Origin: a candidate division WOR-3 bacterium
GTDB lineage: Bacteria > Hydrothermota > UBA3072 > WFRC01
NCBI GenBank assembly: GCA_015486685.1
Contig: WFRC01000349.1
Coordinates: 1-27,783, forward strand
DNA: 27,783 nucleotides
Direction of reading: 5' to 3'
Below are positions 1,783 through 21,302 of the stretch, one piece after another (the stretch's first letter is position 1; each line of letters starts with the position of its first letter). Below the pieces are notes generated by a model that saw only the letters and a program-made list of their open reading frames with translations, ran no database searches and had not been told where the DNA came from. The translations under genes were made by a program, and so were the position numbers.

Positions 1783-2721
1783 ATGCCTAAAACACCTGTT
1801 ATAGACCTACATTGCGATGTTCTAACAAAATCCCTGTTAATATTCAGGAAAAGATTAACAGTGACACCTGAATCATTGAAAAAAGGAAATGTAGGTGCTC
1901 AGGTTTTTGCATTATTTGTGCATCCAAAGATAAGAAAAACTAAAAATCTTGTATTCAGAGAGATAGCAATCTTCCAAAGGATTATGGAAAGAAACCAAGA
2001 AACCCTGAAATATATAATTAAAACTCAGGACATTGAAAGAGTTTATAAAGAAGGGAAAACTGCCGCAATCCTTGCAGTTGAAGGCGGCAATATTATTGAG
2101 AATCTGGATGATTTAAGATTTTTTGCAAATATGGGGATTCTATATCTCACTATTACATGGAATTATCATAATAGATGGGCAGATGCGGCATTCCCAAAAA
2201 TACCCGAACACAATGGATTAAGCAATGAAGGTAAAAAACTCATAATGGAAATGGAAAGATATAGGATTTTACCTGACGTCTCCCATTGCTCGGAAAAAAC
2301 ATTTTATGATATAATTGATAATACTAATATGCCTGTAATTGCAAGCCATTCAAATGCTCATAAACTTTTCAATCATTTCAGAAACCTAAAAGATAGGCAA
2401 ATTAAAGAGATTGGTAAGAAAGGAGGAATAATTGGGGTAAATTTCTATTGTGGGTTTCTTAATGGAAGGAAAAAATGCACTATAGATGATGTTGTTGAAC
2501 ATATAAAATATATTGCTGATATGGGTGGAATAGAAATTGTTGGCATTGGCTCTGATTTTGATGGAATAACCGCAGTTCCGGAAGGTCTGGAGTCTCCGGA
2601 GAAATATCCTCTATTGGCAGAAAAATTGCTGAAAAATGGGTTTTCAGAAGGAGATGTCTCTGAAATATTCTATAAAAATGCATTAAGGGTGTTCAAAAAG
2701 GCAAAAAAGATAAATGGGTAA
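1783..2721 (+). CDS. Membrane dipeptidase (peptidase M19, amidohydrolase fold)
   Basis: IDLHCD, AVEG, DVSH, ASHSNA, RNL and GIGSDFDG motifs. Confidence 0.9.
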   Translation: MPKTPVIDLHCDVLTKSLLIFRKRLTVTPESLKKGNVGAQVFALFVHPKIRKTKNLVFREIAIFQRIMERNQETLKYIIKTQDIERVYKEGKTAAILAVEGGNIIENLDDLRFFANMGILYLTITWNYHNRWADAAFPKIPEHNGLSNEGKKLIMEMERYRILPDVSHCSEKTFYDIIDNTNMPVIASHSNAHKLFNHFRNLKDRQIKEIGKKGGIIGVNFYCGFLNGRKKCTIDDVVEHIKYIADMGGIEIVGIGSDFDGITAVPEGLESPEKYPLLAEKLLKNGFSEGDVSEIFYKNALRVFKKAKKING

Positions 2722-2806
2722 ATTAGTTAAAAAAACAGGTTAAGGTTGAGGTTAAGAAAAGATTAGTGAATGAGTAGACGAGAGAAAGAATAGGGGCTTC
2801 CAATAT

Positions 2807-2843
2807 TGTCATTGCGAGCGACCAACGGGAGCGTGGCAATCTC
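2807..2843 (+). repeat. GTCA/CGTC-type REP-like palindrome
   Basis: TGTCATTGCGAGCGACCAACGGGAGCGTGGCAATCTC. The first 30 nt are identical to 13840-13869, and ATTGC/GCAAT form an outer stem. Confidence 0.85.
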
Positions 2844-2941
2844 ACAGGTGGGGTTGAGTAGTTTGGAGTGCATTCACCGTGCGAATGCGTTGTTGTCTGT
2901 TAAATCCGCATTCTCACTTCCGCATTCCGCATTAGTTTGAA

Positions 2942-3047
2942 CACGAGACACGGTCACGAAACACGGTTTTTATTACTTCCCATTTTTCAGTTCCTACTTC
3001 TTACTTCCCAGTTTATCTGGGAGTAGGAGGGGCTTCCCAGCCCCGAT
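2942..3047 (+). repeat. 106-nt dispersed repeat, copy 1 (ends in a GTAG-type palindrome)
   Basis: 99/106 identical, gap-free, to 24876-24981 by manual count. A partial inverted copy lies at 13497-13559. Confidence 0.92.
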
Positions 3048-3206
3048 GATTCCTTAATTTCCTTCCCTCTAAAATCGGGGAAGGATAAAGGGAGGGTGTC
3101 TTATGTTTCTTGAATTTTGTAATTTGTAAGACTGACCCCGATGTTCACTCTCATTAGTTCTTTCTTGTCATTCTGAGCCATCGGCGAAGAATCTCTGCTG
3201 AACCTG

Positions 3207-3260
3207 TTTCAACATCTTATTATTACCATAGTGTCACAGAGTCAAGCACCGTCCCCATTT
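3207..3260 (+). repeat. 54-nt dispersed repeat ending GTCAAGCACCGTCCCCATTT
   Basis: 51/54 identical to 8434-8487. The neighbouring block 3146-3195 is 43/50 identical to 8312-8361. Confidence 0.9.
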
Positions 3261-3294
3261 TTCAAAATATTTCACATTGCCAAGCCAAAAATGC

Positions 3295-3355
3295 AAAAAA
3301 TACAAATATATGGTAAAAAAATACATAAATATGAAAAAAAATACATAAAATATTG
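3295..3355 (+). repeat. Triple direct repeat AAAAAATACA upstream of the TPR/ATPase operon promoter
   Basis: TACA cores at 3301, 3322 and 3342 (spacing 21 and 20), ending at TTGACA 3353. Confidence 0.7.
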
Positions 3356-3393
3356 ACAAAAGGACTTGATTTTTTTTTAAATTATCTTATCTT
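3353..3393 (+). promoter_or_regulatory. Candidate sigma70 promoter(s) of the TPR/ATPase operon
   Basis: TTGACA at 3353-3358 with TAAATT at 3378-3383 (19-nt spacer), or TTGATT at 3366-3371 with TATCTT at 3388-3393 (16-nt spacer). Confidence 0.5.
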
Positions 3394-3411
3394 AGATTAA
3401 GATGGTGAAAT

Positions 3412-4416
3412 ATGGATAATAAGAAGATTGAAAAAATTATAGAATTAAAGAAAAGGCTTATTGCAAAGCCTGATACCAACGATTTGTTAGAACTTGCTTG
3501 CCTATGGAGAGATGTAGGATTAAACAAAAAGGCAACTCAATGTTTTCTTGATTACCTTGATTCAGTCAAAGAATTAAAAAAAACCAGTGTTTTAAGTTTT
3601 TTTGATGGCACATTAGGAAAATATAAAGATGAAATAGCCCAATTTTTTGCACAGGGTGGAAAAGCAGGCAAAGAGGATGAATTTGACGGTGAATCACTAC
3701 TTGAAATGGCAAACCTTCTTTATGAGATTGGTTCACCTGAAGAGGCGAAACAAAATTATATAAGGTCTTTTGATGCATTTATTCAAGAGAGAAATGAGGA
3801 TGGGGCAAATAAAACACTTAAAATATTAAAAGATAGATACCCAGATGAAAAAGAGGTTCAAAAGATGAAAATCACCATATCTCCCGAAGTAGATAAAGAA
3901 AAACTTACATATTTTGTAAAGGCGTTGGACGAAAAAGACAAAATTGATAATAGTGGAGAGCTTTATTATATTGCAGGGATTCTTTTCAGAGATAATGGGT
4001 TAAGAGATGACGCAATAGAACAATTAGAGCAGGGTATCTCAATAGACTCTCCTTTCAGGGTTAAATCCGCTATGGCTCTTGCCCAGTTATATGAAGATAT
4101 GGACGATATAATCAGCAGTAAACAAATTTTAGAAAAAGCCTTGAATTTTCCTGTTACTGAAAAGGAGAAACTTCCTTTATATTATAAAATGGCAAATATT
4201 CTGGAAAAAGAAGGAGATATTGAGGGTGCAAAAAAATATTATCAAATAATATATAAAATGAACCCTGCATATCTCGATATAAGAGAAAAAATTGAGGTAA
4301 AAAAACCAGAAGAAGTAGTGAAAAAGATTATTCCGCAAGAAGTGGAAGAAGAACCTGAGCCTGTAACTGCTGGTGTTGAATCTATTCCACAAAAAGAAAG
4401 AATAGAATTTCTATAG
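3412..4416 (+). CDS. TPR protein, short paralog of the 654-aa SgmX-like protein
   Basis: TPR-like helices. YYIAGILFRDNGLRDDAIEQLE aligns with HYDLGITYKEMGLIDEAIHEFE of 5249-7213. Ends KERIEFL. Confidence 0.8.
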   Translation: MDNKKIEKIIELKKRLIAKPDTNDLLELACLWRDVGLNKKATQCFLDYLDSVKELKKTSVLSFFDGTLGKYKDEIAQFFAQGGKAGKEDEFDGESLLEMANLLYEIGSPEEAKQNYIRSFDAFIQERNEDGANKTLKILKDRYPDEKEVQKMKITISPEVDKEKLTYFVKALDEKDKIDNSGELYYIAGILFRDNGLRDDAIEQLEQGISIDSPFRVKSAMALAQLYEDMDDIISSKQILEKALNFPVTEKEKLPLYYKMANILEKEGDIEGAKKYYQIIYKMNPAYLDIREKIEVKKPEEVVKKIIPQEVEEEPEPVTAGVESIPQKERIEFL

Positions 4417-4424
4417 GGGGATAA

Positions 4425-5246
4425 ATGGATTACGAAAGATTTTATGGATTTACGCGAGAACCATTCTCAGATATTCCTGACCCATCTCTTTTCTACAGTG
4501 GTCCCGAACATACACGGGCTTTTATAAAAATATTACATATTGCAAAAAGGAACAGGGGATTGGGTGTTCTTATAGGGGATGTAGGTACGGGGAAAACAAC
4601 CCTTTCAAGGAAGATATTAAAAGAACTTCAGTCAGATGGTAAATTTGAGGCAGGACTCCTTGTTCTTACGCACTCTGATTTCACAATGGTATGGTTTTTG
4701 AAAAAAATTTCCGCCCTGTTAAATATAGAAACAAATTCAGAGGATAAAACTGCATTGATGTCTTTAATTACGAAAAAACTCTATGAAGTTTATGAAACAA
4801 ACAAGAGGGTTGTCCTTATTGTGGACGAAGCAAATAAAATTAAGAGTGAAGCACTACTGGAAGAAATCAGAGGACTATTAAACCTGGAATTGTCTACGGG
4901 AAGGCTGGTCACATTTATAATGAGCGGTATGCCTGAACTTTTAACAAATTTGAAACAAAATGAATCAATGGCACAAAGAATTTCAACGGTAGTTAAACTT
5001 GTTCCACTTTCAGCCACCTCGGCAAAGGAGTATATTAGATATAGAATCAAGAATGTAGGAGTAAATAACGATATATTTTCAGATACCGCCTATGATTTGA
5101 TATATAAATTTAGCAAAGGAAGACCCAGAATTATAAATGTAATATGTGATAATGCTTTATTGGAGGGGGCATTAATGAAAAAGAAAAACCTTGATGCCGC
5201 AGTTATCGAATCAGTGGTAGGAGAAATGGGAATTGAAGGAGGATAA
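4425..5246 (+). CDS. ExeA/GspA-like AAA ATPase (short form, no peptidoglycan-binding domain), copy 1
   Basis: N-terminal F..EPFS..PD, Walker A GDVGTGKTT, Walker B LIVDEAN, QRI and G.PR.IN.ICDNALL motifs. Confidence 0.9.
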   Translation: MDYERFYGFTREPFSDIPDPSLFYSGPEHTRAFIKILHIAKRNRGLGVLIGDVGTGKTTLSRKILKELQSDGKFEAGLLVLTHSDFTMVWFLKKISALLNIETNSEDKTALMSLITKKLYEVYETNKRVVLIVDEANKIKSEALLEEIRGLLNLELSTGRLVTFIMSGMPELLTNLKQNESMAQRISTVVKLVPLSATSAKEYIRYRIKNVGVNNDIFSDTAYDLIYKFSKGRPRIINVICDNALLEGALMKKKNLDAAVIESVVGEMGIEGG

Positions 5247-5248
5247 GG

Positions 5249-7213
5249 ATGGCTAAAGCAGATACTGTATCTTCTCTCAAAATTAAGGCAAAGGCATCAA
5301 TCTCAAAAGGAGATTATAAAACAGCAATTGCCTTATATGAAAAGATTATAGGTATCGCCTCTGATGACCCAAATATACTTAATGAAATGGGGGAATTATA
5401 CAGGAAAGCAGGAAAAAGCGAAAAAGCAAAAGAAACCTTCTGGAAGGCACTCGAACAGTATAAAAAACTTGATTATTACACAAACGCAATTGCCATTGCC
5501 CAAAAACTTTTGAAATTAGGTGCAGACCAATTAGAACTGTATTCTACCCTTGGTGAGTTATACGACAAACAGGGATTAATAGGTGATGCATTATCTTCAT
5601 ATAACGAACTTGCAGAAAGGTTTAGGCTCGAAGGGGATATGGGAGGGGTTCTGGAAACATACAAAAAGATGGTCAATCTTACACCAAAAAAGATTGATAT
5701 AAGAATGAAATTAGTAGACCTATTCCTTGCCCAGAAGATGCAAGACAATGCAATAGACCAATTAGAACAAATAGAGAAGATATTCAGAGAACAGGGCAGA
5801 GTTGATGATGCAGATGGCATTAGAATGAGAATTTCTTCATTATCAGGAAAAGCCCCAAAGGTTGAAGAAAAAACAAAACCGAAGAAACAAGCACCTGTTA
5901 AAGAAGAAAAAACGCCTGAACCCGAAGAAATCGTTTTTGAACAGACAGCAGGACCAGAGATATTTGAAGAGACACTTACATCCGAAGAAATCCAGGAGTC
6001 TCTGGAACAAGCAATATCTACATCTGCTTCTGAGAAAGCAGAAAAGGAAGCAGAAGAAAAGGTCCCTGTACCCCAGAGTGAATTAACAGAAAACTTATCG
6101 GATTGGTCAAATTGGGTAGGACTTGCTGACCTCTATATGTCTGTTGGCTCTCTGGATGAAGCAATTGAATATTATTATAAGGCTGCGGATGCCTATTTTG
6201 ATGAAAAGGATTATGAAAATGCACTCCCTATATATAATAAAATTGCAGAATTGAAACCATTTGAATTAATGCCGAGGCAGAAGATTATTCAGATAGCCAC
6301 GAAACTAAACAATAGAAAACTTGCAGTAGAAGGATATATAAGTCTCGCTGATTGTTTAAGCAGAAGGGGTGCAAAGATTGAATCTATAAATGCATTAAAT
6401 AGGGCATTAAAACTTGCTCCAAAAAATACAGAGATAAGGGAAAAAATTAGAGAATTAGAAGGAAAAGCACCCTCTCCACCACCACCTAAAAAAACAGAAA
6501 AGCCTGAACAAAAAAAGAAAGAGAAAGTTGAATCCATTATAAGTTTTGATGATTTGCTTAAAGAAGAGGTTAAACCGAAACCGAAATTTACTGTTGAAGA
6601 TAAGAAGGAAGTAAAGGCAGGAGAGCAATTTTATGATTTAAACGAATTACTTGATGAATTTAAGGAAGGCGTTTTCCAGAACATTTCAAAAGAGGATTTT
6701 ACAAGCCACTATGATTTAGGAATTACTTACAAAGAAATGGGATTGATTGATGAAGCAATTCACGAGTTTGAAATTGCGTCTGCCGGGAAACGAGAAAAAT
6801 TAAAATCACTTGAAATGCTGGCTGTATGTTTTGAAGAAAAGGGGAATATAGACAAGGCAGAAAAACTTTACTTAAAAGGACTTGCAACCGAAGGATATAA
6901 ACCCGAGGAATATTTAGGGTTTCACTATCGTTTAGGTGTTTTATATCAAAATCAAAAAAGGTTTGAAGAGGCATTAAAAGAATTTGGAAAAGTCATTGAA
7001 ATTGAGCCAACATTTAGAGATATCAAAAAGAGATTGCAAAATATAAGGTCTCAGGTACCTCCTAAAATTGAGAAGAAAAAAGAAGTGCAAGAAACTCCAG
7101 AAGAGAATATTTTAGAACAAATGAGAGAAGAAATTGCAGAAGGTCTAGATGAAAAGAAAGAGGAAGGTAAGACTAAAAAGAAGTCCAAAAAAGATAGAAT
7201 TTCCTATGTATAA
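5249..7213 (+). CDS. Large TPR protein, SgmX-like (three TPR clusters joined by charged linkers)
   Basis: N-terminal, middle and C-terminal TPR clusters separated by Glu/Lys/Pro-rich linkers. HYDLGITYKEMGLIDEAIHEFE matches the motif I recall from SgmX-type proteins (not database-checked). Ends KDRISYV. Confidence 0.75.
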   Translation: MAKADTVSSLKIKAKASISKGDYKTAIALYEKIIGIASDDPNILNEMGELYRKAGKSEKAKETFWKALEQYKKLDYYTNAIAIAQKLLKLGADQLELYSTLGELYDKQGLIGDALSSYNELAERFRLEGDMGGVLETYKKMVNLTPKKIDIRMKLVDLFLAQKMQDNAIDQLEQIEKIFREQGRVDDADGIRMRISSLSGKAPKVEEKTKPKKQAPVKEEKTPEPEEIVFEQTAGPEIFEETLTSEEIQESLEQAISTSASEKAEKEAEEKVPVPQSELTENLSDWSNWVGLADLYMSVGSLDEAIEYYYKAADAYFDEKDYENALPIYNKIAELKPFELMPRQKIIQIATKLNNRKLAVEGYISLADCLSRRGAKIESINALNRALKLAPKNTEIREKIRELEGKAPSPPPPKKTEKPEQKKKEKVESIISFDDLLKEEVKPKPKFTVEDKKEVKAGEQFYDLNELLDEFKEGVFQNISKEDFTSHYDLGITYKEMGLIDEAIHEFEIASAGKREKLKSLEMLAVCFEEKGNIDKAEKLYLKGLATEGYKPEEYLGFHYRLGVLYQNQKRFEEALKEFGKVIEIEPTFRDIKKRLQNIRSQVPPKIEKKKEVQETPEENILEQMREEIAEGLDEKKEEGKTKKKSKKDRISYV

Positions 7214-8028
7214 TGGATTATGAATCTTTTTTTAGTCTAAAAGAAAAACCATTCTCTACCTCCCCTGATGAAAGATTTTATTATGATAGTCCTCAACATT
7301 CAAAAGTAATCTTAAAACTTTTACACACAGCTGAGGAATCCCTCGGGTTAGGCGTACTTATTGGTGATATAGGCGCAGGAAAAACCACTATTTCAAGAAG
7401 GATGCTGGATATCCTCTCATCCAAGGATAATTTTGAGGTAGCCTTACTGGTAATTATTCATTCAGAGATTACTTCTGTATGGTTTTTAAAAAAGATTGCG
7501 TTTCAATTGGGGGTTGAAAAGAATTCGGACAATAAAGTCTCACTTGTTACGATGATTTATAAACAACTATCTCAAATATATGAAAATAATAAAAAAACAG
7601 TAGTAATGATAGATGAAGCCAATATGTTAAAGAATAAAGAGATTTTTGAAGAAATGAGGGGGCTATTAAATATTGAAGTGGAAGGAAAACACCTCATTAC
7701 ATTTATACTCTTTGGTTTAACTGAACTTGAAGAAAATCTAAAATTGGATGAGCCTTTACATCAGAGAATAGCCATCCGATGCAAATTGGAGCCATTGGAT
7801 TTAGAATCTACTAATGCATATATTAACCACAGATTGAAAGTGGCAGGCAGAGAAGAACTACTTTTTGAAAAAGGTGCCGTGCAAAGTATTTATCAATATT
7901 CTGATGGAAAGCCAAGACTGATAAATATAATCTGTGAGAATGCACTTCTTGAAGGATTTTTAACAAAGAAACACATCATAAACGAAGATATAATAGAATC
8001 TGTTGTTCAGGATTTGGGTCTAAAATAA
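7213..8028 (+). CDS. ExeA/GspA-like AAA ATPase (short form), copy 2
   Basis: Walker A GDIGAGKTT and Walker B MIDEAN. The start overlaps the upstream stop (TAATG). Collinear with 4425-5246. Confidence 0.9.
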   Translation: MDYESFFSLKEKPFSTSPDERFYYDSPQHSKVILKLLHTAEESLGLGVLIGDIGAGKTTISRRMLDILSSKDNFEVALLVIIHSEITSVWFLKKIAFQLGVEKNSDNKVSLVTMIYKQLSQIYENNKKTVVMIDEANMLKNKEIFEEMRGLLNIEVEGKHLITFILFGLTELEENLKLDEPLHQRIAIRCKLEPLDLESTNAYINHRLKVAGREELLFEKGAVQSIYQYSDGKPRLINIICENALLEGFLTKKHIINEDIIESVVQDLGLK

Positions 8029-8063
8029 ATCTTATGATTTTTTATTTTATCTTCATTTTTTTC

Positions 8064-8093
8064 TTGACAAAATTTTAAAAAACTTTATATATT
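8064..8093 (+). promoter_or_regulatory. Near-consensus sigma70 promoter with no adjacent ORF
   Basis: TTGACA at 8064-8069, 18-nt spacer, TATATT at 8088-8093, AT-rich upstream sequence. Confidence 0.65.
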
Positions 8094-8099
8094 AGAAGA

Positions 8100-8175
8100 A
8101 GAGTAATTTTTTTCTCTCGGTGGAGGGCTTTTTTCTCCTACCAGATACAAATCAGGAGAACCCTCCACCATTATT
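8100..8175 (+). ncRNA. Candidate small structured RNA (family unassigned)
   Basis: GGTGGAGGG (8119-8127) pairs with CCCTCCACC (8161-8169), TTCTCCT (8133-8139) pairs with AGGAGAA (8154-8160), and GAT/ATC closes an ACAA loop. It lies just downstream of the promoter at 8064-8093. Confidence 0.35.
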
Positions 8176-8230
8176 CTAAAATTCAGGAAAGCCAAAATCC
8201 ATAAAACAGCCGTTGGCAGTTAGCTGAATC

Positions 8231-8715
8231 TGGGTCAAAAAAACTATTTTGTCATTACGAGGAGCAAAACGAGCGAAGAAGCCGAAGATGTGAGAGACCC
8301 AAGCGAATGAACACTCTCATCAGTTCTCTTCTGTCATTCTGAGCCGCAGGCGAAGAATCTCATCCTGTCATATTACCCCTTCAACAACCCTGAAATAAGT
8401 TCAGGATGACATTGTTCAGGGTGATATTACTTATTTCAGCATCTCATTATTACCATAGTGTCACAGAGTCAAGCATCGTCCCCATTTCTTTTCCGATAAT
8501 TCGTGTTTATTTTTTTCGTTTATCCAGTTGGTTTCGTTTTTTACACTCTCAACTTTTACCCCCGTAATTATCGGGGCTGGGAAGCCTCACAATGACATTC
8601 GCAGGCTAAAGCCTTCGCCTACCGATTCCCATTTTTTGGTTTATATCTTTTGTCGTTCTAGGAATTTATAATGTTAATCCTGTTCATCCTGTCAGATAAT
8701 TTTATAATTTGTAAT
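8231..8715. repeat. Intergenic repeat mosaic
   Basis: GTCA-type elements at 8251, 8333-8361 (+), 8387-8411 (-) and 8587-8597 (-, partial). GTAG-type fragments at 8566-8586 (-) and 8599-8622 (-). 8278-8321 is 39/44 identical to 13869-13912. Degenerate 9-mers at 8500-8538. Confidence 0.88.
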
Positions 8716-8787
8716 GTAAAATGAGGGAAAAAACGAATTTTGTTCTACCCTGTGTCTGAATTTTCCCAACAATCCTTAAAAAATTAC

Positions 8788-8815
8788 TTGCAATTTCCCT
8801 GCAAAAGTATATATT
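8788..8815 (+). promoter_or_regulatory. Candidate sigma70 promoter of tadA, possibly leaderless
   Basis: TTGCAA at 8788-8793, 16-nt spacer, TATATT at 8810-8815. The second in-frame ATG (8823) is 7 nt downstream and no SD is visible. Confidence 0.55.
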
Positions 8816-8816
8816 T

Positions 8817-9275
8817 ATGAAAATGGATGATACAAGATGGATGCAGATAGCTCTAAAAGAGGCTGAGAAGGCATACCGAGAAAAAGAGGTACCCGTAGGG
8901 GCAATAATCGTACTTGACGATGAAATTATAGGTAGAGGTTATAACAGGGTTGAAGCACTGCAAGACCCCACTGCACATGCCGAAATCATAGCAATATCCT
9001 CAGCAGTAAATAAGATGGGGAACTGGCGTTTAAGTGGTGCTACTCTTTATTCTACTATTGAACCTTGCTTAATGTGTGCAGGTGCAATAATCTTATCAAG
9101 AATTAAAAAAGTGGTATTTGGGGCAAGAGATAAAAAATTCGGTGCATTTGGTTCTATTCTGGATATAACAAAATATAAATGGAATCATAAAATTGTTGTC
9201 GTTCCAGATATTTTAGGCAATGAATCGGCAACACTAATGAAAAAGTTTTTTGCAGAAAAAAGAAGAAAAAGATAG
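8817..9275 (+). CDS. tadA: tRNA adenosine(34) deaminase; true start may be 8823
   Basis: EVPVGA, HAE and PCLMC zinc-deaminase motifs, VVFGARD and C-terminal FF..KR. Confidence 0.92.
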   Translation: MKMDDTRWMQIALKEAEKAYREKEVPVGAIIVLDDEIIGRGYNRVEALQDPTAHAEIIAISSAVNKMGNWRLSGATLYSTIEPCLMCAGAIILSRIKKVVFGARDKKFGAFGSILDITKYKWNHKIVVVPDILGNESATLMKKFFAEKRRKR

Positions 9276-9628: not shown

Positions 9629-12600
9629 ATGCTTTTTTTATCATTATTATTCGCTTTTGATGCACCATTTTCGATCCCCGAACTAAAAAAATTGGGGAAT
9701 GAAATTGGACAAAGTGCACACAAAAAAACAATAGAAATCTTAAAAAAACATCCGGAATATAGAAAATATTTCTGGAGACCTGCAAAAAAGCCTTTTAAGA
9801 TTTCCAAAAAAAATCTTAAATTGATGGAACCTGAAACCCTGAATGTGCTTGTTTTAAGGGTACAGTTCTTGCTTGATGATTCAACTGACCCGCTGGATAG
9901 TCTGACAACAGGGAATGGAAAAATGCAGTATACACCGCAAGGGCATCCTTGCGATACAGTTGTAGATTCTACTACGGGAGATACATCATACACAAGGAGT
10001 TTGTATTATGACCCGCCTCACGATTCACTGTATTTCCACCATTTAATGGAATACCTTCATAATTATTACTGGGAGGTCTCTCACCACCTGCTTTATATCA
10101 AGTATAAAATTTATCCGGAAGGGGCTGAAACGGCATATACTGTTCCGCATAAAGCAAGTTATTACGGAAATCCCAATATGTGGACTTTTGGATTATTTAG
10201 TATATTAAAAGATGCCATTCAGGTAGCAGACCAGGACCCTGTGAATATTGATTTTTCTGATTTTGACAGGGTGATTCTATTCCATGCAGGTTCAATGTGG
10301 CAAACAGATGTAGCAGGCAATACCCCCTATGATTTACCTGCTGTTTATATAGAAGGGGCAGATGAAATATTTGGCGAACCCATTTATGCAAATAACAGAA
10401 CAGATTCGATAAACTCCGGTGTAATATATGCTGAAACAGCATTTCAGGATGGTTATCCTGCCTTTCTTCAGGGTGGATTGTGCCACGAATTTGGGCATAC
10501 ATTGGGGTTTTTGGATTTGTATGATGTATCAGGTGAATCAATGGGTATGGGAGGATGGGCAATAATGGGAACTGGAAACTGGAATATGGATGGACTCGTG
10601 CCTCCAAGGGCATCAGGATGGCATAGATTACTTGTCGGTTTTGATGATACTCTAGTCATAAATCATGACACAACAGGTGTAAAAATTCACTGGACAGGCT
10701 CTTCAAATACACCAAGATTAATAAAAATTCCTATTAACGCACATGAGTATTTTCTCATTGAAAACAGGTATACATATATGAATTCTGACACTGTCAGAGA
10801 TTTTGACCCCTGTCAATCCTGTGGGGTAGATTCCAATGGATTCAGGGTATGGAAGGACAATGTTCTGACAAAGGTTAATGACTATGAAGTTTCATTACCC
10901 CCTGACCCAAATAGTGGTGGACTTGCAATCTATCATATTGATGACAATAAGATTGCCAGAGACGATACATTTAATATGATAAATGCAGGTTATCCAAAAG
11001 GTGTCGCGATGGAAGAGGCTGATGGTATTCAAGATTTTCAAAGACCATTTAGTGAAGGTATATATAGCAATAAAGAATTATGGGAAACATTTTACGGAAG
11101 CCCCTATGATGTATTTTCAAGTTATGGTAGATTGGATTCATTTACAGAATCTTCCCGACCGAATACAGATGATAATGACTCAGGAAAAACTTATATAGCC
11201 ATTACAAATATTAGTCATCCAGGAGAAATAATGCATTTTGATGTCCACTTTCGCAACAGGATAACGGGCTTTCCTGTTTATGTTGACCATCCCAGCGATG
11301 TGATTTCACCAATGCCTGTTCACATTGGAGATTCGTTATATATACTTCAGGGCACATATTATGGGGATTTATTTCTCATTTCTCCTGATGGCGAAAGACC
11401 ATATTTTGGGAAAATAGACAATAATACATATTCAACACCTGCAATAGGAGACCTGGATGGAAATGGAACAGATGAAGTTGCATCCGCAGATTTGAACGGT
11501 ATTGTTTATGCATGGGAATTAGACAGTACACATCAAAAATTGGCAGAATATCAAACAAATGGTCCTATATATGGAAGTCCATCTATCGCCGACATTGATA
11601 ATGATGGTAAGGCTGAAATTCTGGTAGGTACCGATGATAATTATCTATATGCACTTTCTTTGCCAGATACCGGAACACATAGAACACTCGTCGCAAAACC
11701 AGGCTTTCCTGTTTATCTGGGCCAATCTATATGGAGTGTCCCTCTTTTTTATAAGGGTTATATCTATGCCCTTACCGCTGATGGCACTGTCTATAAGATT
11801 TCACCCACAGGAAAAATAATATGGAGAAGGGGTAAAGAAAATCTTGCATTTACTACCTCATCGCCTGTGATTGGTGATATTGATAGAGATGGCACAGATG
11901 AAATTATGTATATCACTGGCGGAGGCAAAGTATGGTGTATATCCACAAAAGATTCTGTATCGGATTCAATTAAATGGGTATACCAGATGCAAGACACAAC
12001 ATTTGTTTCTTCTCCTGCACTTGGTGATATAGATGGAGACGGCTATCCTGATATTGTTTTTGCGGGAAAAGATAAAATTTATGCCCTGAATAAAAATGGT
12101 GTATTACTGGATAATTTCCCTGTGGATATGAAATTTGGAGACTGGATTCAATCCTCCATTGTGCTTGCAGACTTAAATGATGATGGAAAAGAGGATATAA
12201 TATTTGGGAGCCCTGTGGCAGGTGTACATATTCTGAATTATCAGGGAAAAGATATTGACCTCTCCCCTATTTCTACAGGTGCAACAGTTTGGGCAACTCC
12301 GCTTATCTATGATTTGAACAATGATAGTAATACCACAGAAATCCTATTTGGCGCCGAAGATTCAATGATTTATGGATATAAATTTATCAGCAAAATTAAA
12401 AGCAACTGGCAAATGGAGTTTAAAAATCCTGCTCACCAGATGATATATTCCGACAGTCTGCTGCCTCCGTCGCAAACACCTGACACACTCTTTTACCATA
12501 GAAAATTTTATATATACCCGAGCCCCATAACGAAAAATTCCGCAACAATCAGGTATTATCTGGGGGATAAAGCAAAATCTGTAAAGATTAAAATATTTAA

Positions 12601-12781
12601 TATTGCAGGCGATTTAATAAAGGATATGGATGGCACTACTGAAAACGGAGATAATGACAATTCCGTTGATTTTACAAATATTGCTAATGGGGTTTACATA
12701 TTAACCATTAATGTAAAATTCACAAATGGAAAAATTATCCAGGATAAAAAAAGATTCGCCATTATGAAAGGAGGTTTTTAA
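9629..12781 (+). CDS. Secreted M6 (immune inhibitor A-like) metalloprotease with FG-GAP repeats and a T9SS/FlgD-Ig-like C-terminal domain
   Basis: HEFGH zinc motif with LDLYD and Met-turn IMGTGNW. About six S.P.(I/L)GD(I/L)D.DG repeats. C-terminal YIYPSP...IKIFNIAG...NGVY. SD AAGGAG at 9619-9624. Confidence 0.85.
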   Translation: MLFLSLLFAFDAPFSIPELKKLGNEIGQSAHKKTIEILKKHPEYRKYFWRPAKKPFKISKKNLKLMEPETLNVLVLRVQFLLDDSTDPLDSLTTGNGKMQYTPQGHPCDTVVDSTTGDTSYTRSLYYDPPHDSLYFHHLMEYLHNYYWEVSHHLLYIKYKIYPEGAETAYTVPHKASYYGNPNMWTFGLFSILKDAIQVADQDPVNIDFSDFDRVILFHAGSMWQTDVAGNTPYDLPAVYIEGADEIFGEPIYANNRTDSINSGVIYAETAFQDGYPAFLQGGLCHEFGHTLGFLDLYDVSGESMGMGGWAIMGTGNWNMDGLVPPRASGWHRLLVGFDDTLVINHDTTGVKIHWTGSSNTPRLIKIPINAHEYFLIENRYTYMNSDTVRDFDPCQSCGVDSNGFRVWKDNVLTKVNDYEVSLPPDPNSGGLAIYHIDDNKIARDDTFNMINAGYPKGVAMEEADGIQDFQRPFSEGIYSNKELWETFYGSPYDVFSSYGRLDSFTESSRPNTDDNDSGKTYIAITNISHPGEIMHFDVHFRNRITGFPVYVDHPSDVISPMPVHIGDSLYILQGTYYGDLFLISPDGERPYFGKIDNNTYSTPAIGDLDGNGTDEVASADLNGIVYAWELDSTHQKLAEYQTNGPIYGSPSIADIDNDGKAEILVGTDDNYLYALSLPDTGTHRTLVAKPGFPVYLGQSIWSVPLFYKGYIYALTADGTVYKISPTGKIIWRRGKENLAFTTSSPVIGDIDRDGTDEIMYITGGGKVWCISTKDSVSDSIKWVYQMQDTTFVSSPALGDIDGDGYPDIVFAGKDKIYALNKNGVLLDNFPVDMKFGDWIQSSIVLADLNDDGKEDIIFGSPVAGVHILNYQGKDIDLSPISTGATVWATPLIYDLNNDSNTTEILFGAEDSMIYGYKFISKIKSNWQMEFKNPAHQMIYSDSLLPPSQTPDTLFYHRKFYIYPSPITKNSATIRYYLGDKAKSVKIKIFNIAGDLIKDMDGTTENGDNDNSVDFTNIANGVYILTINVKFTNGKIIQDKKRFAIMKGGF

Positions 12782-16706: not shown

Positions 16707-17376
16707 AATCTTAAAGGTAAACAACATTCACAAGATATATGAAACACCTGGTGAGAAACTTTATATATTAAAGGGATTGAACTTTATTCAAAAGAGGGAA
16801 GAAATATCACTCATAATAGGACCCTCCGGGGTTGGGAAAAGCACATTCCTACATATTGTTGGTGGACTAAATAAGCCTTCGCAGGGTGAAGTCTTTATTG
16901 ATAATACTCCATTTTATAGAGTAAATGAACCCAAAAGGGCATTTTTAAGAAATAAATACATAGGTTTTGTATTTCAATTCCATTACCTTCTATCAGATTT
17001 TACGGCAATTGAAAATGTTATGATGCCCCTATTGTTAAATGGAGTACCCGCTGTATCTGCTAAAAAAAAGGCTCAGGAAATGCTGTCCATCTGTAAAATT
17101 ACCGGGAGGTGGAATCATCTTCCATCTGAACTGTCCGGGGGAGAGAAACAGAGGGTAGCAATCGCAAGAAGTATAGTAAACGATCCACTTGTCCTGCTTG
17201 CCGATGAACCAACAGGGGACTTAGACCCTGAGCATCAGGAGGATATTATTACCCTATTTCAATCTCTAAATCAAGAAAAAAAAATGAGCATAATTATAGT
17301 TTCTCACAATAAAGGACTTGAAAAAATTGCAAATAATGTTTATATTTTAGGTGATGGAAAACTGGAGAAAATATGA
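16699..17376 (+). CDS. lolD: Lipoprotein-releasing ABC transporter ATP-binding protein
   Basis: GPSGVGKST, FVFQFHYLL, LSGGEKQRVAIAR, LADEPTGDLD. Adjacent to lolC/E. Confidence 0.85.
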   Translation: MNEILKVNNIHKIYETPGEKLYILKGLNFIQKREEISLIIGPSGVGKSTFLHIVGGLNKPSQGEVFIDNTPFYRVNEPKRAFLRNKYIGFVFQFHYLLSDFTAIENVMMPLLLNGVPAVSAKKKAQEMLSICKITGRWNHLPSELSGGEKQRVAIARSIVNDPLVLLADEPTGDLDPEHQEDIITLFQSLNQEKKMSIIIVSHNKGLEKIANNVYILGDGKLEKI

Positions 17377-17828
17377 AGTGTGATATGTGCGGTGAAAATG
17401 ATGCCATATATCATTTCACAGAAGTTGTAGATGGTAAAATAAAGGTGTATCACCTTTGTGCTGAATGTGCGGCAAAAAAGGGTGGTATCCCCTATCCTGT
17501 TATTAAAAAAGAAAAGGAAACAGAAGATATAAAGTGTCCTGAATGCGGTCTTACATATAAAGAATTCACACAGACAGGTAAATTTGGATGCCCTGAGTGT
17601 TATAATACATTTAGAGAAAGGATTAAACCCCTTTTAATCAAGATTCATAACAGTTCACAACATTCCGGTAAAATCTTAATTAAAGACGAAAGAACAATCA
17701 CCCTGAAAAGAAATATCAGACAATTAAGAAAAGAGTTGAAAAAGGCACTGGAAACGGAATCTTATGAGAACGCCGCAAAAATAAAAGAGGAGTTAAGCCA
17801 TTATGAAAAGGATTTGAAAGAATTATGA
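17373..17828 (+). CDS. mcsA: McsB activator McsA (CXXC motifs + UVR domain)
   Basis: Four CXXC motifs, FGCPECY, C-terminal E.YE.AA.IK UVR motif. Lies upstream of mcsB. Confidence 0.9.
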   Translation: MKCDMCGENDAIYHFTEVVDGKIKVYHLCAECAAKKGGIPYPVIKKEKETEDIKCPECGLTYKEFTQTGKFGCPECYNTFRERIKPLLIKIHNSSQHSGKILIKDERTITLKRNIRQLRKELKKALETESYENAAKIKEELSHYEKDLKEL

Positions 17829-18880
17829 TTCCTGAATATCTTATTAGTGAAACACCATTCTGGCTTAAGGAAGAGGGATTATTTTCCGAGATTGTGCTTT
17901 CTTCAAGGGTAAGGATTGCAAGAAATTTGGAAGATACCTTCTTTGTGCAGAGGGCATCCGCTGATATCCTTCAGGAAACGATGGAAAAGATAAAAGAGTC
18001 TATCTTGAATATGAAAAATATCAGGAGTTTTATATATATGGGTAGTTTGAACCCCGTTGAAAGGCAATTTTTAATGGAGAGAAGAATCGTATCACATGAT
18101 ATTGTGGAAAAGGTCAAATATGCGGGAGTTGGAATAAGCAATGATGAAAAAGCAGGTGTAATGGTTAATGAAGAAGACCATATCCGTATATACGGTATAA
18201 TGCCGGGATTAAATTTCACAGAGGCTTATGAATCTGCTGATGATATTGACAACTTTATCTCCAAAGAACTCGATATTGCTTACGATAAAGAGTTCGGATA
18301 CTTAACTGCCTGTCCTACAAATGTGGGGACAGGGATGAGGGCATCTGTTCTAATCCATCTGCCTGCACTTGTTTTAACAAAAGAGATAGATAAGGCATTA
18401 AGAAGTTTCTCTCAGATGGGATACCTTATTAGAGGATTATATGGCGAAGGCACACAGGTTCAGGGAAATATGTTTCAAATAACAAATCAAAGGACACTGG
18501 GTATATCAGAGGAAAAAATCATCCAGAATCTTTCGAAAATGGTCAGGGAACTCATAAACTATGAACTAAATGCCCGAGAAATACTTGTAAAAAATGCAAA
18601 ATATGAAGTAGAAGATAAAATCTGGAGGGCATATGCAATACTCTCAAGTGCAAGGTTATTAACCTCAGAAGAGGTAATAAATCTGGCATCGGCAGTAAGG
18701 TTTGGCATAGGGTTAGGAATTATTACAAGTATCCCTATCAAAACCCTGAATAAACTTCTTGTCCTCACTCAACCTGCCCATATTCAAATCATATTTGAAA
18801 AAAATATGCATGCAGAAGAAAGAGATATAACAAGGGCTGAATTTGTCAGAAAAATTTTATCAGGAGGTGAAAATGGATGA
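17825..18880 (+). CDS. mcsB: Protein-arginine kinase
   Basis: [31 protein letters not shown] and RGLYGEG motifs. Confidence 0.93.
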
Positions 18881-21302
18881 TATATACACACCAAGGGTAA
18901 GACGCATCCTTCAAATAGCAAGAGCAGAAGCAAGTAGACTACAAAATGACCATATAGGGCCTGAGCACATACTCCTCGCATTAATTAAAGAGGGCTCAGG
19001 TATTGCCCTCAGAATCTTGAAAGAAATGGGGGTAAACATATTCGACCTGAGAAAGGCTATTGAATCAAGCATCGCCGAGACATCAGGAAGCGTTGTTTCT
19101 TCCGCATTAGAGCTGGATAATGAAGCACAGGAATCAATAAGGGGTGCGGTTGAGGAATCCCGTATGTTCGGGCATTCATATATTGGAACCGAGCACCTCC
19201 TTCTTGGGATATTAAAGGTAAGAGAAAGTCTTGCTGCACAAATGTTGATGAATTTTGGCGTAGATTTCATTGATGCAAAGAGGACAATCATCCAACTTTT
19301 TTCCAAAATGCCTCATCAAGGTGGAATAAGGAGAGAGTCCAAAACACCCGCATTAGATTTTTATTGCAGAGACCTGAACAAACTCGCAGCAGAAGAAAAA
19401 CTTGACCCCATCATTGGAAGGGAAACAGAAATAGATAGGGTAATACAGATACTTTCCAGGAGGAAAAAGAATAACCCTGTTCTCATTGGTGAACCCGGAG
19501 TAGGGAAAACAGCCATAGTTGAAGGATTAGCACAAAGAATTATTGCCAAAAAAGTACCTGAACTATTATTTGAGAAAAGGGTTTTAGGACTTGATTTAGC
19601 CTCTGTGGTTGCTGGAACAAAGTATAGAGGACAATTTGAAGAAAGGCTTAAGGCAATCTTAAACGAAATAAAACAATCAAATGAGGTAATTCTCTTTATT
19701 GATGAACTGCATACAATCGTAGGCGCAGGGGCAGCAGAAGGTGCCATAGATGCCTCTAATATGCTAAAACCTGCTCTTGCCCGTGGCGAAATTCAATGCA
19801 TCGGAGCAACAACAATGGAAGAGTATAGAAAATATATTGAGAAGGACGGTGCATTGGAAAGGAGATTTCAGGTAGTTATGGTTGACCCTCCCGATGTTGA
19901 ACAAACCATTGATATACTGAAAGGTTTGAAAGAAAAATATGAAGAACACCACGGGGTAGCGTATTCAGAAAGTGCCATAGAAGCATCAGCATACCTTTCT
20001 GATAAATATATTACAGACAGATACCTGCCTGATAAAGCAATAGATGTAATAGATGAATCAGGTGCAAGGGTAAAACTGATGAAATCACCACCACCCGATA
20101 AAATAATAGAGAAGGAAAAAGAGCTTGAAGATATAAGGTTAAAATTAAATAAAGCCGTTAATACACAGGATTACAACACTGCTGCCGATTTGAGAGATAA
20201 AAGGGACAAAGTTGCTGCAGAACTTGATGAAATAAGAGAACAGTGGAAGATGGAAAGTTACGAAAAATTAGGGCAGGTTACAGAAGAAGATGTCCGACAG
20301 GTAATTTCAATGTGGACAGGTATACCACTTGTAAAACTCAAAGAACAGGAGACAGAAAAACTTCTCAAAATGGAAAGTGAATTGAAAAAAAGGATTGTGG
20401 GACAGGATGAAGCAATAACCATTATGGCAAAGGCAATAAGAAGAGGAAGGGTGGGATTGAAAGATCCAAAAAGGCCTATTGGCACATTCATATTTTTGGG
20501 GCCCACAGGGGTTGGAAAAACAGAATTGGCAAAACAACTTGCAGCATTTCTATTCAACAGCGAAAATGCCCTTATAAGAATGGATATGAGCGAATATATG
20601 GAAAAATTCAATATATCAAAATTGATTGGCGCACCTCCCGGGTATGTAGGATATGACGAAGGGGGACAGTTAACTGAAAAGGTAAGGAGACGTCCATATT
20701 CCGTTGTGCTATTTGATGAAATAGAAAAGGCACATCCGGATATATTCAATATCTTGCTTCAAATACTTGAAGATGGGGAATTGACAGACGCATTTGGGAG
20801 AAAGGTAAACTTCAAAAATACCGTCATTATACTCACTTCCAATATCGGTTCAAGGGAAATAATGAGTTCATCACGGGTAGGTTTCCAATCAGAAGGCAAA
20901 GAGGTCTCTTATAACACAATGAAAGAAAGGCTCCTCAGCGAAGTAAAAAGAACATTTAATCCCGAATTTCTCAACAGGCTTGATGAGGTAATTGTATTCC
21001 ACTCATTAGGAAAAGAAGAAATGAAAAAGATTGTGGATATTCTATTCAGAGATGTTGCGAAGAGGGTAAAGGAAAAAAATATTGAAATCACTCTGGGCGA
21101 AGATGCCTGTGAATTTTTGATTGAAAAAGGATTTGACCCTGAATATGGAGCAAGACCACTAAGGCGAACTATTCAGAGATATCTAGAAGACCCTCTTACA
21201 GATGAAATATTAAAGGAAAGATGGAAAGAGGAAGATGAAATAATAGTCCATAGAGGAGATACCAATCTGATATTTGAGAGTTTGACACCTGTAAAGGTTT
21301 AG
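18873..21302 (+). CDS. clpC: ATP-dependent Clp protease ATP-binding subunit ClpC
   Basis: Two Clp-N repeats, [11 protein letters not shown] middle domain, [11 protein letters not shown] ClpP-docking loop. Start moved to 18873 because of SD AGGAGGTGA at 18862-18870. Confidence 0.96.

Follow-up and report, generated by a model that had tools for sequence, protein, structure and literature searches.

A doubled TPR scaffold-ATPase cassette with an SgmX-like protein in a candidate division WOR-3 genome

In Myxococcus, activation of type IV pili centres on SgmX, which has so far been regarded as a protein of myxobacteria and Bdellovibrio. Proteins of this type are recruited by MglA-GTP via their C-terminal block of tetratricopeptide repeats (TPRs) and bring the PilB motor to the pilus base, which leads to extension of the type IV pilus. 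What, then, is the role of a cassette in a candidate division WOR-3 bacterium in which two TPR scaffolds, one of them SgmX-like, are each followed by the gene of an ExeA-like ATPase? The cassette lies at positions 3412-8028 (forward strand) of the window, i.e. the whole 27,783-nt stretch analysed (contig C349), in a 2.36-Mb metagenome-assembled genome (MAG; 385 contigs, 95% complete, 8% contamination); close homologs that bear names are mostly labelled candidate division WOR-3. Its four co-directional open reading frames (ORFs), designated here TPR1, A1, TPR-L and A2, follow the order TPR-ATPase-TPR-ATPase (Table 1). TPR1 and A1 are 8 nt apart, A1 and TPR-L 2 nt, and the stop codon of TPR-L overlaps the start codon of A2 in TAATG (7211-7215), which agrees with the tight coupling given in a preliminary description of this DNA made from its letters alone; the coordinates and sizes stated there are exact.

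The reading preferred here, held at a probability of about 0.55, is that the cassette encodes a polarity/pilus scaffold system linked to MglA, in which a cognate AAA+ switch ATPase would recognise the tail of each scaffold. Because the longer scaffold is distantly related to SgmX, a type IV pilus activator, the cassette suggests a job for the ATPase encoded next to SgmX, which so far has neither a phenotype nor a proposed role, and offers a hypothesis testable at the bench. That an ATPase gene neighbours sgmX has been published, with no function attached to it; as far as the searched literature shows, the doubling of the cassette, the scaffold tail and its association with the ATPase are undescribed.

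The long scaffold, SgmX and MglA

TPR-L consists of three helical-repeat blocks (aa 1-200, 285-405 and 463-603) separated by E/K/P-rich linkers. In its AlphaFold2 (AF2) model the repeat blocks have pLDDT values >90, and the linkers and C-terminal tail, with values <50, are disordered. The best NCBIfam match is NF052243 (SgmX; 164.6 bits, E 3.6e-48), the next family reaching 72 bits, and in a search of the whole genome with this profile TPR-L was the sole match, in two colinear stretches: an N block (aa 17-199; 90.4 bits, E 7e-26) and a C block (aa 457-606; 77.4 bits, E 6e-22), which align with the corresponding ends of the profile. The region of M. xanthus SgmX matched by the C block holds TPR12-14, the repeats that bind MglA-GTP (PMC7668184). 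Matches to NF052243 were also found in 10 of 10 TPR-L homologs (595-1095 aa, 69-315 bits), with SgmX as the top family in nine; in the exception, a Gemmatimonadaceae protein, MamA scores above SgmX. Given the low NF052243 scores of TPR-L and of these ten homologs, TPR-L is read, from sequence, as belonging to a broad SgmX-like superfamily, of which it would be a remote and shortened representative, rather than as an SgmX equivalog. The records with full-length homologs carry the labels WOR-3, Cloacimonadota, Edwardsbacteria and others. Comparison of TPR-L with PDB chains returned generic TPR proteins only (OGT, MamA and designed CTPRs).

The likeness to SgmX claimed in the preliminary description therefore needs dividing. 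It stands for TPR-L, which is nearer to SgmX than to generic TPR families, N terminus to N terminus and C terminus to C terminus, albeit at 654 aa vs ~1060 aa and far below the profile cut-off of 1800 bits; it does not stand for TPR1, which gave generic TPR Pfam matches and no SgmX profile signal. The reported resemblance of the short scaffold to the middle and C-terminal clusters of the long one was recovered as weak but colinear, aa 92-166 of TPR1 matching the middle block (E 1e-3) and aa 185-316 the C-terminal block (27% identity, E 2e-7). Positional equivalents of TPR1 in three other families (f13, f15 and f24) measure 438-663 aa, and of four tested, three have a weak SgmX-type N block (29-55 bits). 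The TPR proteins of the cassette show neither a signal peptide nor a lipobox, and none of the four cassette proteins has a hydrophobic segment.

Like SgmX, TPR-L is thus a cytoplasmic all-TPR scaffold in which TPR blocks are split by unstructured regions, with both end blocks homologous. The comparison extends to the gene order. M. xanthus sgmX (MXAN_5766) is the first gene of a putative four-gene operon (PMC7668184), in which it is directly followed by MXAN_5765, described as 'a putative Sec system ATPase' (PMC3983030) or as 'SecA-like' (PMC11580455, Table S1), and then by TamB-like and Omp85 genes (PMC3983030); sgmX and the downstream ATPase gene co-occur in STRING (PMC3983030, PMC11580455). 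Going by these published descriptions, an ATPase gene directly after a scaffold gene is common to both loci, which makes the Myxococcus locus an apt comparison, as first proposed. In contrast to the sgmX locus, the cassette is doubled and has no tamAB-like genes downstream. Its long scaffold ends in I-S-Y-V. Bd2492 of Bdellovibrio bacteriovorus, a 353-aa SgmX homolog that binds MglA and resides at the pilus-bearing pole (PMC3983030), indicates that short versions of the family can work; by its published description it resembles TPR-L as a short SgmX relative and differs in being followed by tamAB-like genes and no ATPase gene.

Genes for MglA, MglB and a type IVa pilus machine are all present in this genome. 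Three MglA paralogs are encoded, with scores of 418, 226 and 200 bits to the query. One is on contig C7; those on C190 and C142 adjoin MglB, and the C190 copy scores 291 bits to M. xanthus MglA structures. Several Roadblock genes, about seven genes of T2SSE-family ATPases, including PilB and PilT types, PilM, PilC and two secretins complete the inventory. The earlier proposal had been tied to the presence of MglA and of type IV pilus or type II secretion genes in the genome, and to a TPR-L closer to SgmX than to generic TPR proteins; both are what was found.

The distribution of TPR-L across 151 genomes of the phylum follows that of MglA (ortholog threshold E ≤1e-85). Among the 69 genomes with TPR-L, all have the ATPase and 61 an MglA ortholog; among the 82 without it, these numbers drop to 16 (mostly a third, weaker ATPase type) and 7. 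Presence of TPR-L is almost all-or-none inside each family and, since genomes of one family share ancestry, these counts amount to perhaps 15-20 independent lineages. PilT-family genes accompany TPR-L in 69 of 69 genomes and occur in 60 of the 82 others; as they are nearly universal in the phylum (129/151), their co-occurrence says little.

Two side observations concern MglA-type genes. One genome of family f27 carries four tandem MglA paralogs (G096:C12:208594-211541), 63-65% identical to the C190 copy and one of them with an in-frame TGA; an A1-like ATPase is present there, and neither a PilT-family gene nor TPR-L was detected. In the genome of the window itself, contig C315 (L009:58-2489, continuing to 5707) has in succession a PATAN fragment, a fusion of TPR and Roadblock, a further two Roadblock ORFs and an ORF of 1072 aa; this may represent an additional module of MglB type, with no GTPase visible nearby.

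C-terminal tails and adjacent ATPase genes

Both scaffolds end in a disordered linker and a short tail, I-x-[FY]-[ILVM]-COOH. TPR-L terminates in ...KKDRISYV, and the tails of its homologs consist of a basic run followed by [KR]-[IV]-[ST]-Y-[ILVM]-COOH. In TPR1 homologs the tails read N-I-x-F-[LV] or R-I-L-Y-I and, in families f21 and f30, F-I-I-I-[ILY]; these deviant tails accompany a separate long-branch A1 clade, i.e. tail and ATPase co-vary. The tail pattern is found at the C terminus of 7 of the 1709 ORFs of the genome. Disorder of the tail in the AF2 model implies that it would be free for binding in trans.

The tail tracks the ATPase gene. A set of 143 distinct SgmX-like ORFs, pooled from three independent samplings, was sorted by the C-terminal pattern [IV]-x-[FY]-[ILVM]. 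An ATPase gene lies immediately downstream of 48 of the 61 tailed genes (none for the other 13) and of 3 of the 82 tail-less ones (none for 79); the counts are phylogenetically non-independent, and the pattern recurs in records labelled as several phyla. The three tail-less genes followed by an ATPase gene have variant hydrophobic tails, and the 13 tailed exceptions are mostly TPR-L genes with A1 directly upstream; in family f3 an A2 gene is also present at an unlinked site of the genome. In families f2 and f30, A2 is missing and TPR-L has no tail. No such ATPase gene was found within ~6 kb of any of 75 tail-less loci (mostly Gemmatimonadota, with a few Thermoanaerobaculia and Longimicrobiales).

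The same linkage appears outside WOR-3. A Myxococcota-labelled MAG contains a 1037-aa SgmX-like gene with the C terminus NKISYI and an AAA_22 gene directly after it, a further point of contact with the Myxococcus locus. In the genome holding locus L082 the tailed TPR protein tops the SgmX profile (201 + 141 bits, the sole other match reaching 51 bits), and in the sample of its phylum the ATPase accompanies 10 of 11 tailed genes, the eleventh lying at a contig end, and 0 of 5 tail-less ones. In the phylum sample of the Myxococcota-labelled genome (G151) no genome exceeded the SgmX cut-off, and none of the matches obtained with the best SgmX-like protein in a homolog search bears the name SgmX. 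A predicted complex of A2 with residues 455-654 of TPR-L, both given as alignments, had an ipSAE of 0.00 in both runs; made without controls, it has no bearing on binding either way.

SgmX-like scaffolds are thus found in records labelled WOR-3, Edwardsbacteria, UBP2, Nitrospirota, Myxococcota, Gemmatimonadota and Acidobacteriota, a subset of them carrying the conserved tail. A still wider spread, suggested by 'Cloacimonadota' labels, had to be tempered, since three such contigs match genomes of the window's own phylum: for L030, L031 and L033, which match G023:C67, G002:C20 and G009:C47, the NCBI labels ('Candidatus Cloacimonadota' or 'uncultured bacterium') disagree with the taxonomy used.

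The ATPases and the age of the duplication

A1 and A2 align without gaps at 47% identity (E 2e-96). Both begin MDYE, share 51 of their first 100 residues and keep intact Walker A (from residue 51, GDVGTGKT/GDIGAGKT) and Walker B (VVLIVDEA/VVMIDEA) motifs, in agreement with the preliminary description. Pfam assigns them to AAA_22 (~73 bits for A1, 72 bits for A2), and homologs in public sources are named 'general secretion pathway protein A', 'ExeA family protein' or 'AAA family ATPase'. Neither a membrane segment nor a peptidoglycan-binding domain was detected in these 271-273 aa proteins by Pfam and hydropathy, the top hydropathy window being a core beta-strand.

ExeA itself has a membrane segment and a peptidoglycan-binding domain. 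The names of the homologs raise the question of whether the cassette is an accessory of envelope assembly, like ExeA/ExeB or MshM/MshN, that helps to build or position a secretin or pilus machine and is unconnected with MglA polarity. In its favour, the ExeA-like MshM and the TPR protein MshN are encoded by neighbouring genes in the MSHA pilus operon of Vibrio cholerae (PMC4624765), an ATPase-TPR pairing comparable with that found here, and secretins and T2SSE ATPases are encoded in the genome. The pairing differs, however: MshN is TadD-like (bioRxiv 10.1101/576694), while the cassette TPR proteins have no signal peptide or lipobox; the Vibrio genes lie in a pilus operon in the order ATPase-TPR, while here the TPR gene comes first, the flanks are housekeeping and pilus or secretion genes adjoin the cassette at no locus. 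A1 and A2 are soluble, without the two domains of ExeA/GspA, and neighbour TPR genes, not an ExeB/GspB partner. This explanation, which would also leave unaccounted for the end-to-end match to SgmX and the co-distribution with MglA orthologs, is considered quite unlikely.

The top NCBIfam model of both ATPases, matched end to end, is TIGR03015 (184.5 bits for A1, 198.9 bits for A2), which belongs to the XrtA/PEP-CTERM system. An exopolysaccharide-system ATPase with a PrsT-like TPR partner could accordingly be considered, all the more as TIGR02917 (PrsT) is a secondary match of the TPR proteins. Scores well under the cut-offs (324.5 and 312.2), TPR proteins that are not lipoproteins and an exosortase (PF09721) not found in a 95%-complete genome make such an assignment very improbable.

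The AF2 model of A2 (pLDDT 93.7) was closest by Foldseek to ORC/Cdc6, MuB and TnsC (1w5t, 8xvb, 7jgr and 7m99; E 1e-10 to 1e-8, TM 0.64-0.73, 14-21% identity), then to RuvB; at the sequence level no PDB chain matched A2 at E ≤0.01. In the model, A2 therefore has an AAA+ core and lid structurally closest to the switch-type ORC/Cdc6-MuB-TnsC group. Members of that group form ATP-dependent oligomers and recruit partners rather than unfold substrates. They also bind DNA, and a DNA-associated system, i.e. a target selector or loader with TPR adaptors, would fit the same fold class; but the cassette has no transposase, integrase or winged-helix domain, across the phylum it keeps a stable place among housekeeping genes, and action on DNA is not known for the ExeA clade, so that little credence is given to this idea.

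How old is the duplication? A2 is 59-64% identical to A2 orthologs located behind TPR-L in other lineages and 47% identical to A1, while between A1 and its equivalent in the nearest family (locus L011/L110) the identity is 66%. In a maximum likelihood tree of 71 ATPases, an A2 clade (98/90) unites all WOR-3 ATPases encoded after a tailed TPR-L with those labelled Thermodesulfovibrionales (Nitrospirota) and Myxococcota, and A1 of the window groups with the A1 proteins from families f4, f2 and f3 (support 100/99). By these relationships A1 and A2 constitute separate orthologous groups and the duplication is ancient, pair 1 being an old, diverged copy of pair 2. A recent tandem duplication is rejected because A2 is nearer to distant A2 orthologs than to A1; the cassette had been called tandem-duplicated, which is right for the ancient event and wrong for a recent one.

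The gene-neighbourhood survey suggested at the outset was made on 40 related loci fetched from the phylum. The full order TPR1-A1-TPR-L-A2 is the most frequent layout (18 loci), so that the doublet is not unique to this genome. TPR1-A1-TPR-L without a following A2 accounts for 16 loci (in f3, A2 is elsewhere in the genome), A1-TPR-L-A2 for two and TPR-L-A2 for one. Wherever TPR1 is present (35 related loci) it is tailed and the A1 ATPase is next. Edwardsbacteria- and UBP2-labelled MAGs have the order TPR-A-TPR-L. Lineages with two pairs, one pair or none provide a natural experiment on how bacterial polarity modules are built. In one closed WOR-3 genome (CP070795.1, locus L013), which otherwise has the TPR-L-A2 pair only, a 121-aa ORF (L013:7636-8001; 102 bits to the ATPase profile) just upstream of TPR-L looks like the remnant of a lost A1.

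Proposed function and surroundings of the cassette

How might such a system work? According to the preferred reading, the cassette would provide two cytoplasmic TPR scaffolds, each paired with a cognate soluble AAA+ ATPase, the long scaffold being the local version of the SgmX family and presumably binding MglA and acting on pilus output. A flexible linker would present the C-terminal peptide I-x-[FY]-[ILVM], on which the scaffold's own ATPase could dock. In the ATP state the ATPase would assemble and cluster scaffolds, and hydrolysis would release or reset them; the result of this oligomeric switch would be a second, nucleotide-timed layer on top of the MglA GTPase switch. Pair 1 probably serves a separate state, partner or site. 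The earlier proposal of a two-scaffold, two-ATPase device for polarity or pilus control is partly borne out by the SgmX match, the MglA, MglB and pilus genes and the co-occurrence data; for TPR1 the missing SgmX signal argues otherwise.

Several observations weigh against the preferred reading. The SgmX score of TPR-L remains far under the cut-off, and TPR repeats inflate scores of this kind; the phyletic counts shrink with the number of lineages behind them, and PilT-family genes are too common to discriminate. No mglAB or pil gene was found beside the cassette at any locus examined. In one genome (G052, family f4, 95% complete) TPR-L has retained its tail with no A2 detected, and the closest structural relatives of A2 (ORC, MuB and TnsC) are DNA-bound ATPases. 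In M. xanthus, inactivation of MXAN_5765 leaves S-motility and development unaffected (PMC7668184; bioRxiv 10.64898/2026.08.28.747804). Finally, the TPR protein of a third TPR-ATPase pair in the same genome has no tail, so that a tail is not needed for every such pairing.

This third pair, on contig C7, consists of a TPR protein (261 aa) and an ATPase of 268 aa that shares 32-37% identity with A1 and A2, both encoded between cheB and cheW in a cluster that also contains an MglA paralog and a PATAN(DUF4388)-TPR protein (Table 1). The latter carries an MshEN-type c-di-GMP-binding motif (NF053729, 56.8 bits, over the cut-off of 38); PATAN proteins and SgmX co-occur in STRING (PMC11580455). Linkage of the third-type ATPase to an MglA paralog ~7 kb away is found in at least eight related genomes. 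Because of this cluster and its recurrence, TPR-ATPase pairs are tied to MglA and chemosensory signalling by genomic context.

The C7 cluster also bears on a scaffold-ATPase hub with another MglA/chemosensory output, such as gliding, cell division or outer-membrane biogenesis via TamAB. In both M. xanthus and B. bacteriovorus, tamAB-like genes belong to an operon whose first gene is the TPR gene (PMC3983030), and S-motility is kept in MXAN_5765 mutants (PMC7668184). A tamAB-like gene is adjacent, however, neither in the window nor at the annotated loci of relatives, TPR-L is confined to sampled genomes with a PilT-family gene, and pilus extension is the demonstrated role of SgmX; an output of this other kind is regarded as unlikely.

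An extension of the preferred reading goes further and is offered tentatively, being rather doubtful. Tail and ATPase may form a widespread second nucleotide switch in MglA-type polarity control, in which an ExeA-clade ATPase would capture SgmX-type scaffolds by I-S-Y-[ILV] and assemble or reset, in an ATP-dependent manner, a polar pilus-activating hub. WOR-3 would then run two pairs with private tails (I-x-F-L for A1 and I-S-Y-V for A2), i.e. two separately addressable scaffold states. If true, this would assign a function to MXAN_5765 of Myxococcus.

Table 1. Coordinates of the cassette genes, their sub-features and related gene groups. Positions refer to the window unless another locus is named; the SgmX profile is NF052243.
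Feature	Position	Strand	Description
TPR1	3412..4416	+	334 aa, short cytoplasmic TPR scaffold, opens pair 1 (ORF and translation)
TPR1 tail ...KERIEFL	codons 4393-4413	+	End of TPR1
A1	4425..5246	+	273 aa, ExeA/MshM-type AAA_22 ATPase, cognate of TPR1
TPR-L	5249..7213	+	654 aa, SgmX-like scaffold
N-terminal TPR block of TPR-L	5297..5845	+	vs SgmX profile positions 13-195
C-terminal TPR block of TPR-L	6617..7066	+	vs SgmX profile positions 867-1020
TPR-L tail KDRISYV-COOH	7190..7210	+	Basic run, then [IV]-x-[FY]-[ILVM]
A2	7213..8028	+	271 aa, ExeA/MshM-type AAA_22 ATPase, cognate of TPR-L
Terminator-like hairpin and T-run	8114-8127, to 8137	+	After fourth gene (consensus scan)
Third-pair cluster (C7)	L025:677-14562	minus	PilT-like ATPase, (biotin carboxylase, ThiE), MglA paralog, 643-aa double-AAA protein, PATAN(DUF4388)-TPR protein, CheR, CheD, CheB, TPR(261), ExeA-like ATPase(268), CheW, MCP, CheW
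Histidine-utilisation neighbours	L011:3380-6204; L014:2068-3336; L027:1-5975; L202:1-2760		Other MAGs (see text)

Intergenic gaps of 690 bp upstream and ~790 bp downstream isolate the cassette from housekeeping flanks, which comprise genes for an M19 dipeptidase, a TadA-like deaminase, a T9SS-tailed protease, LysRS, a Lol-type ABC transporter, McsA/McsB/ClpC, a ROK kinase and a two-component system; mglAB, pil and gsp genes are absent from the window, as stated before. The hairpin after A2 is possibly the operon end, although the evidence is weak: in promoter and terminator consensus scans of positions 2650-8900 the number of sites was not above that in shuffled sequence. Upstream of this hairpin, positions 8064-8093 hold a sigma-70-like promoter match (11/12; TTGACA-18-TATATT).

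Among the flanking genes, the protease (9629-12781) is a 1050-aa protein of FG-GAP/M6-peptidase type that bears a sorting tail for type IX secretion, and the McsA/McsB/ClpC-type cluster (17373-21302) is made up of a UVR-motif protein, a protein-arginine-kinase-like ATP:guanido phosphotransferase and ClpC. In several WOR-3-type MAGs, histidine-utilisation genes (urocanase, an imidazolonepropionase-type amidohydrolase and FTCD) are located directly upstream of the cassette, where the window has the M19 dipeptidase; the same genes precede the tail-less SgmX-like gene of a Gemmatimonadaceae MAG.

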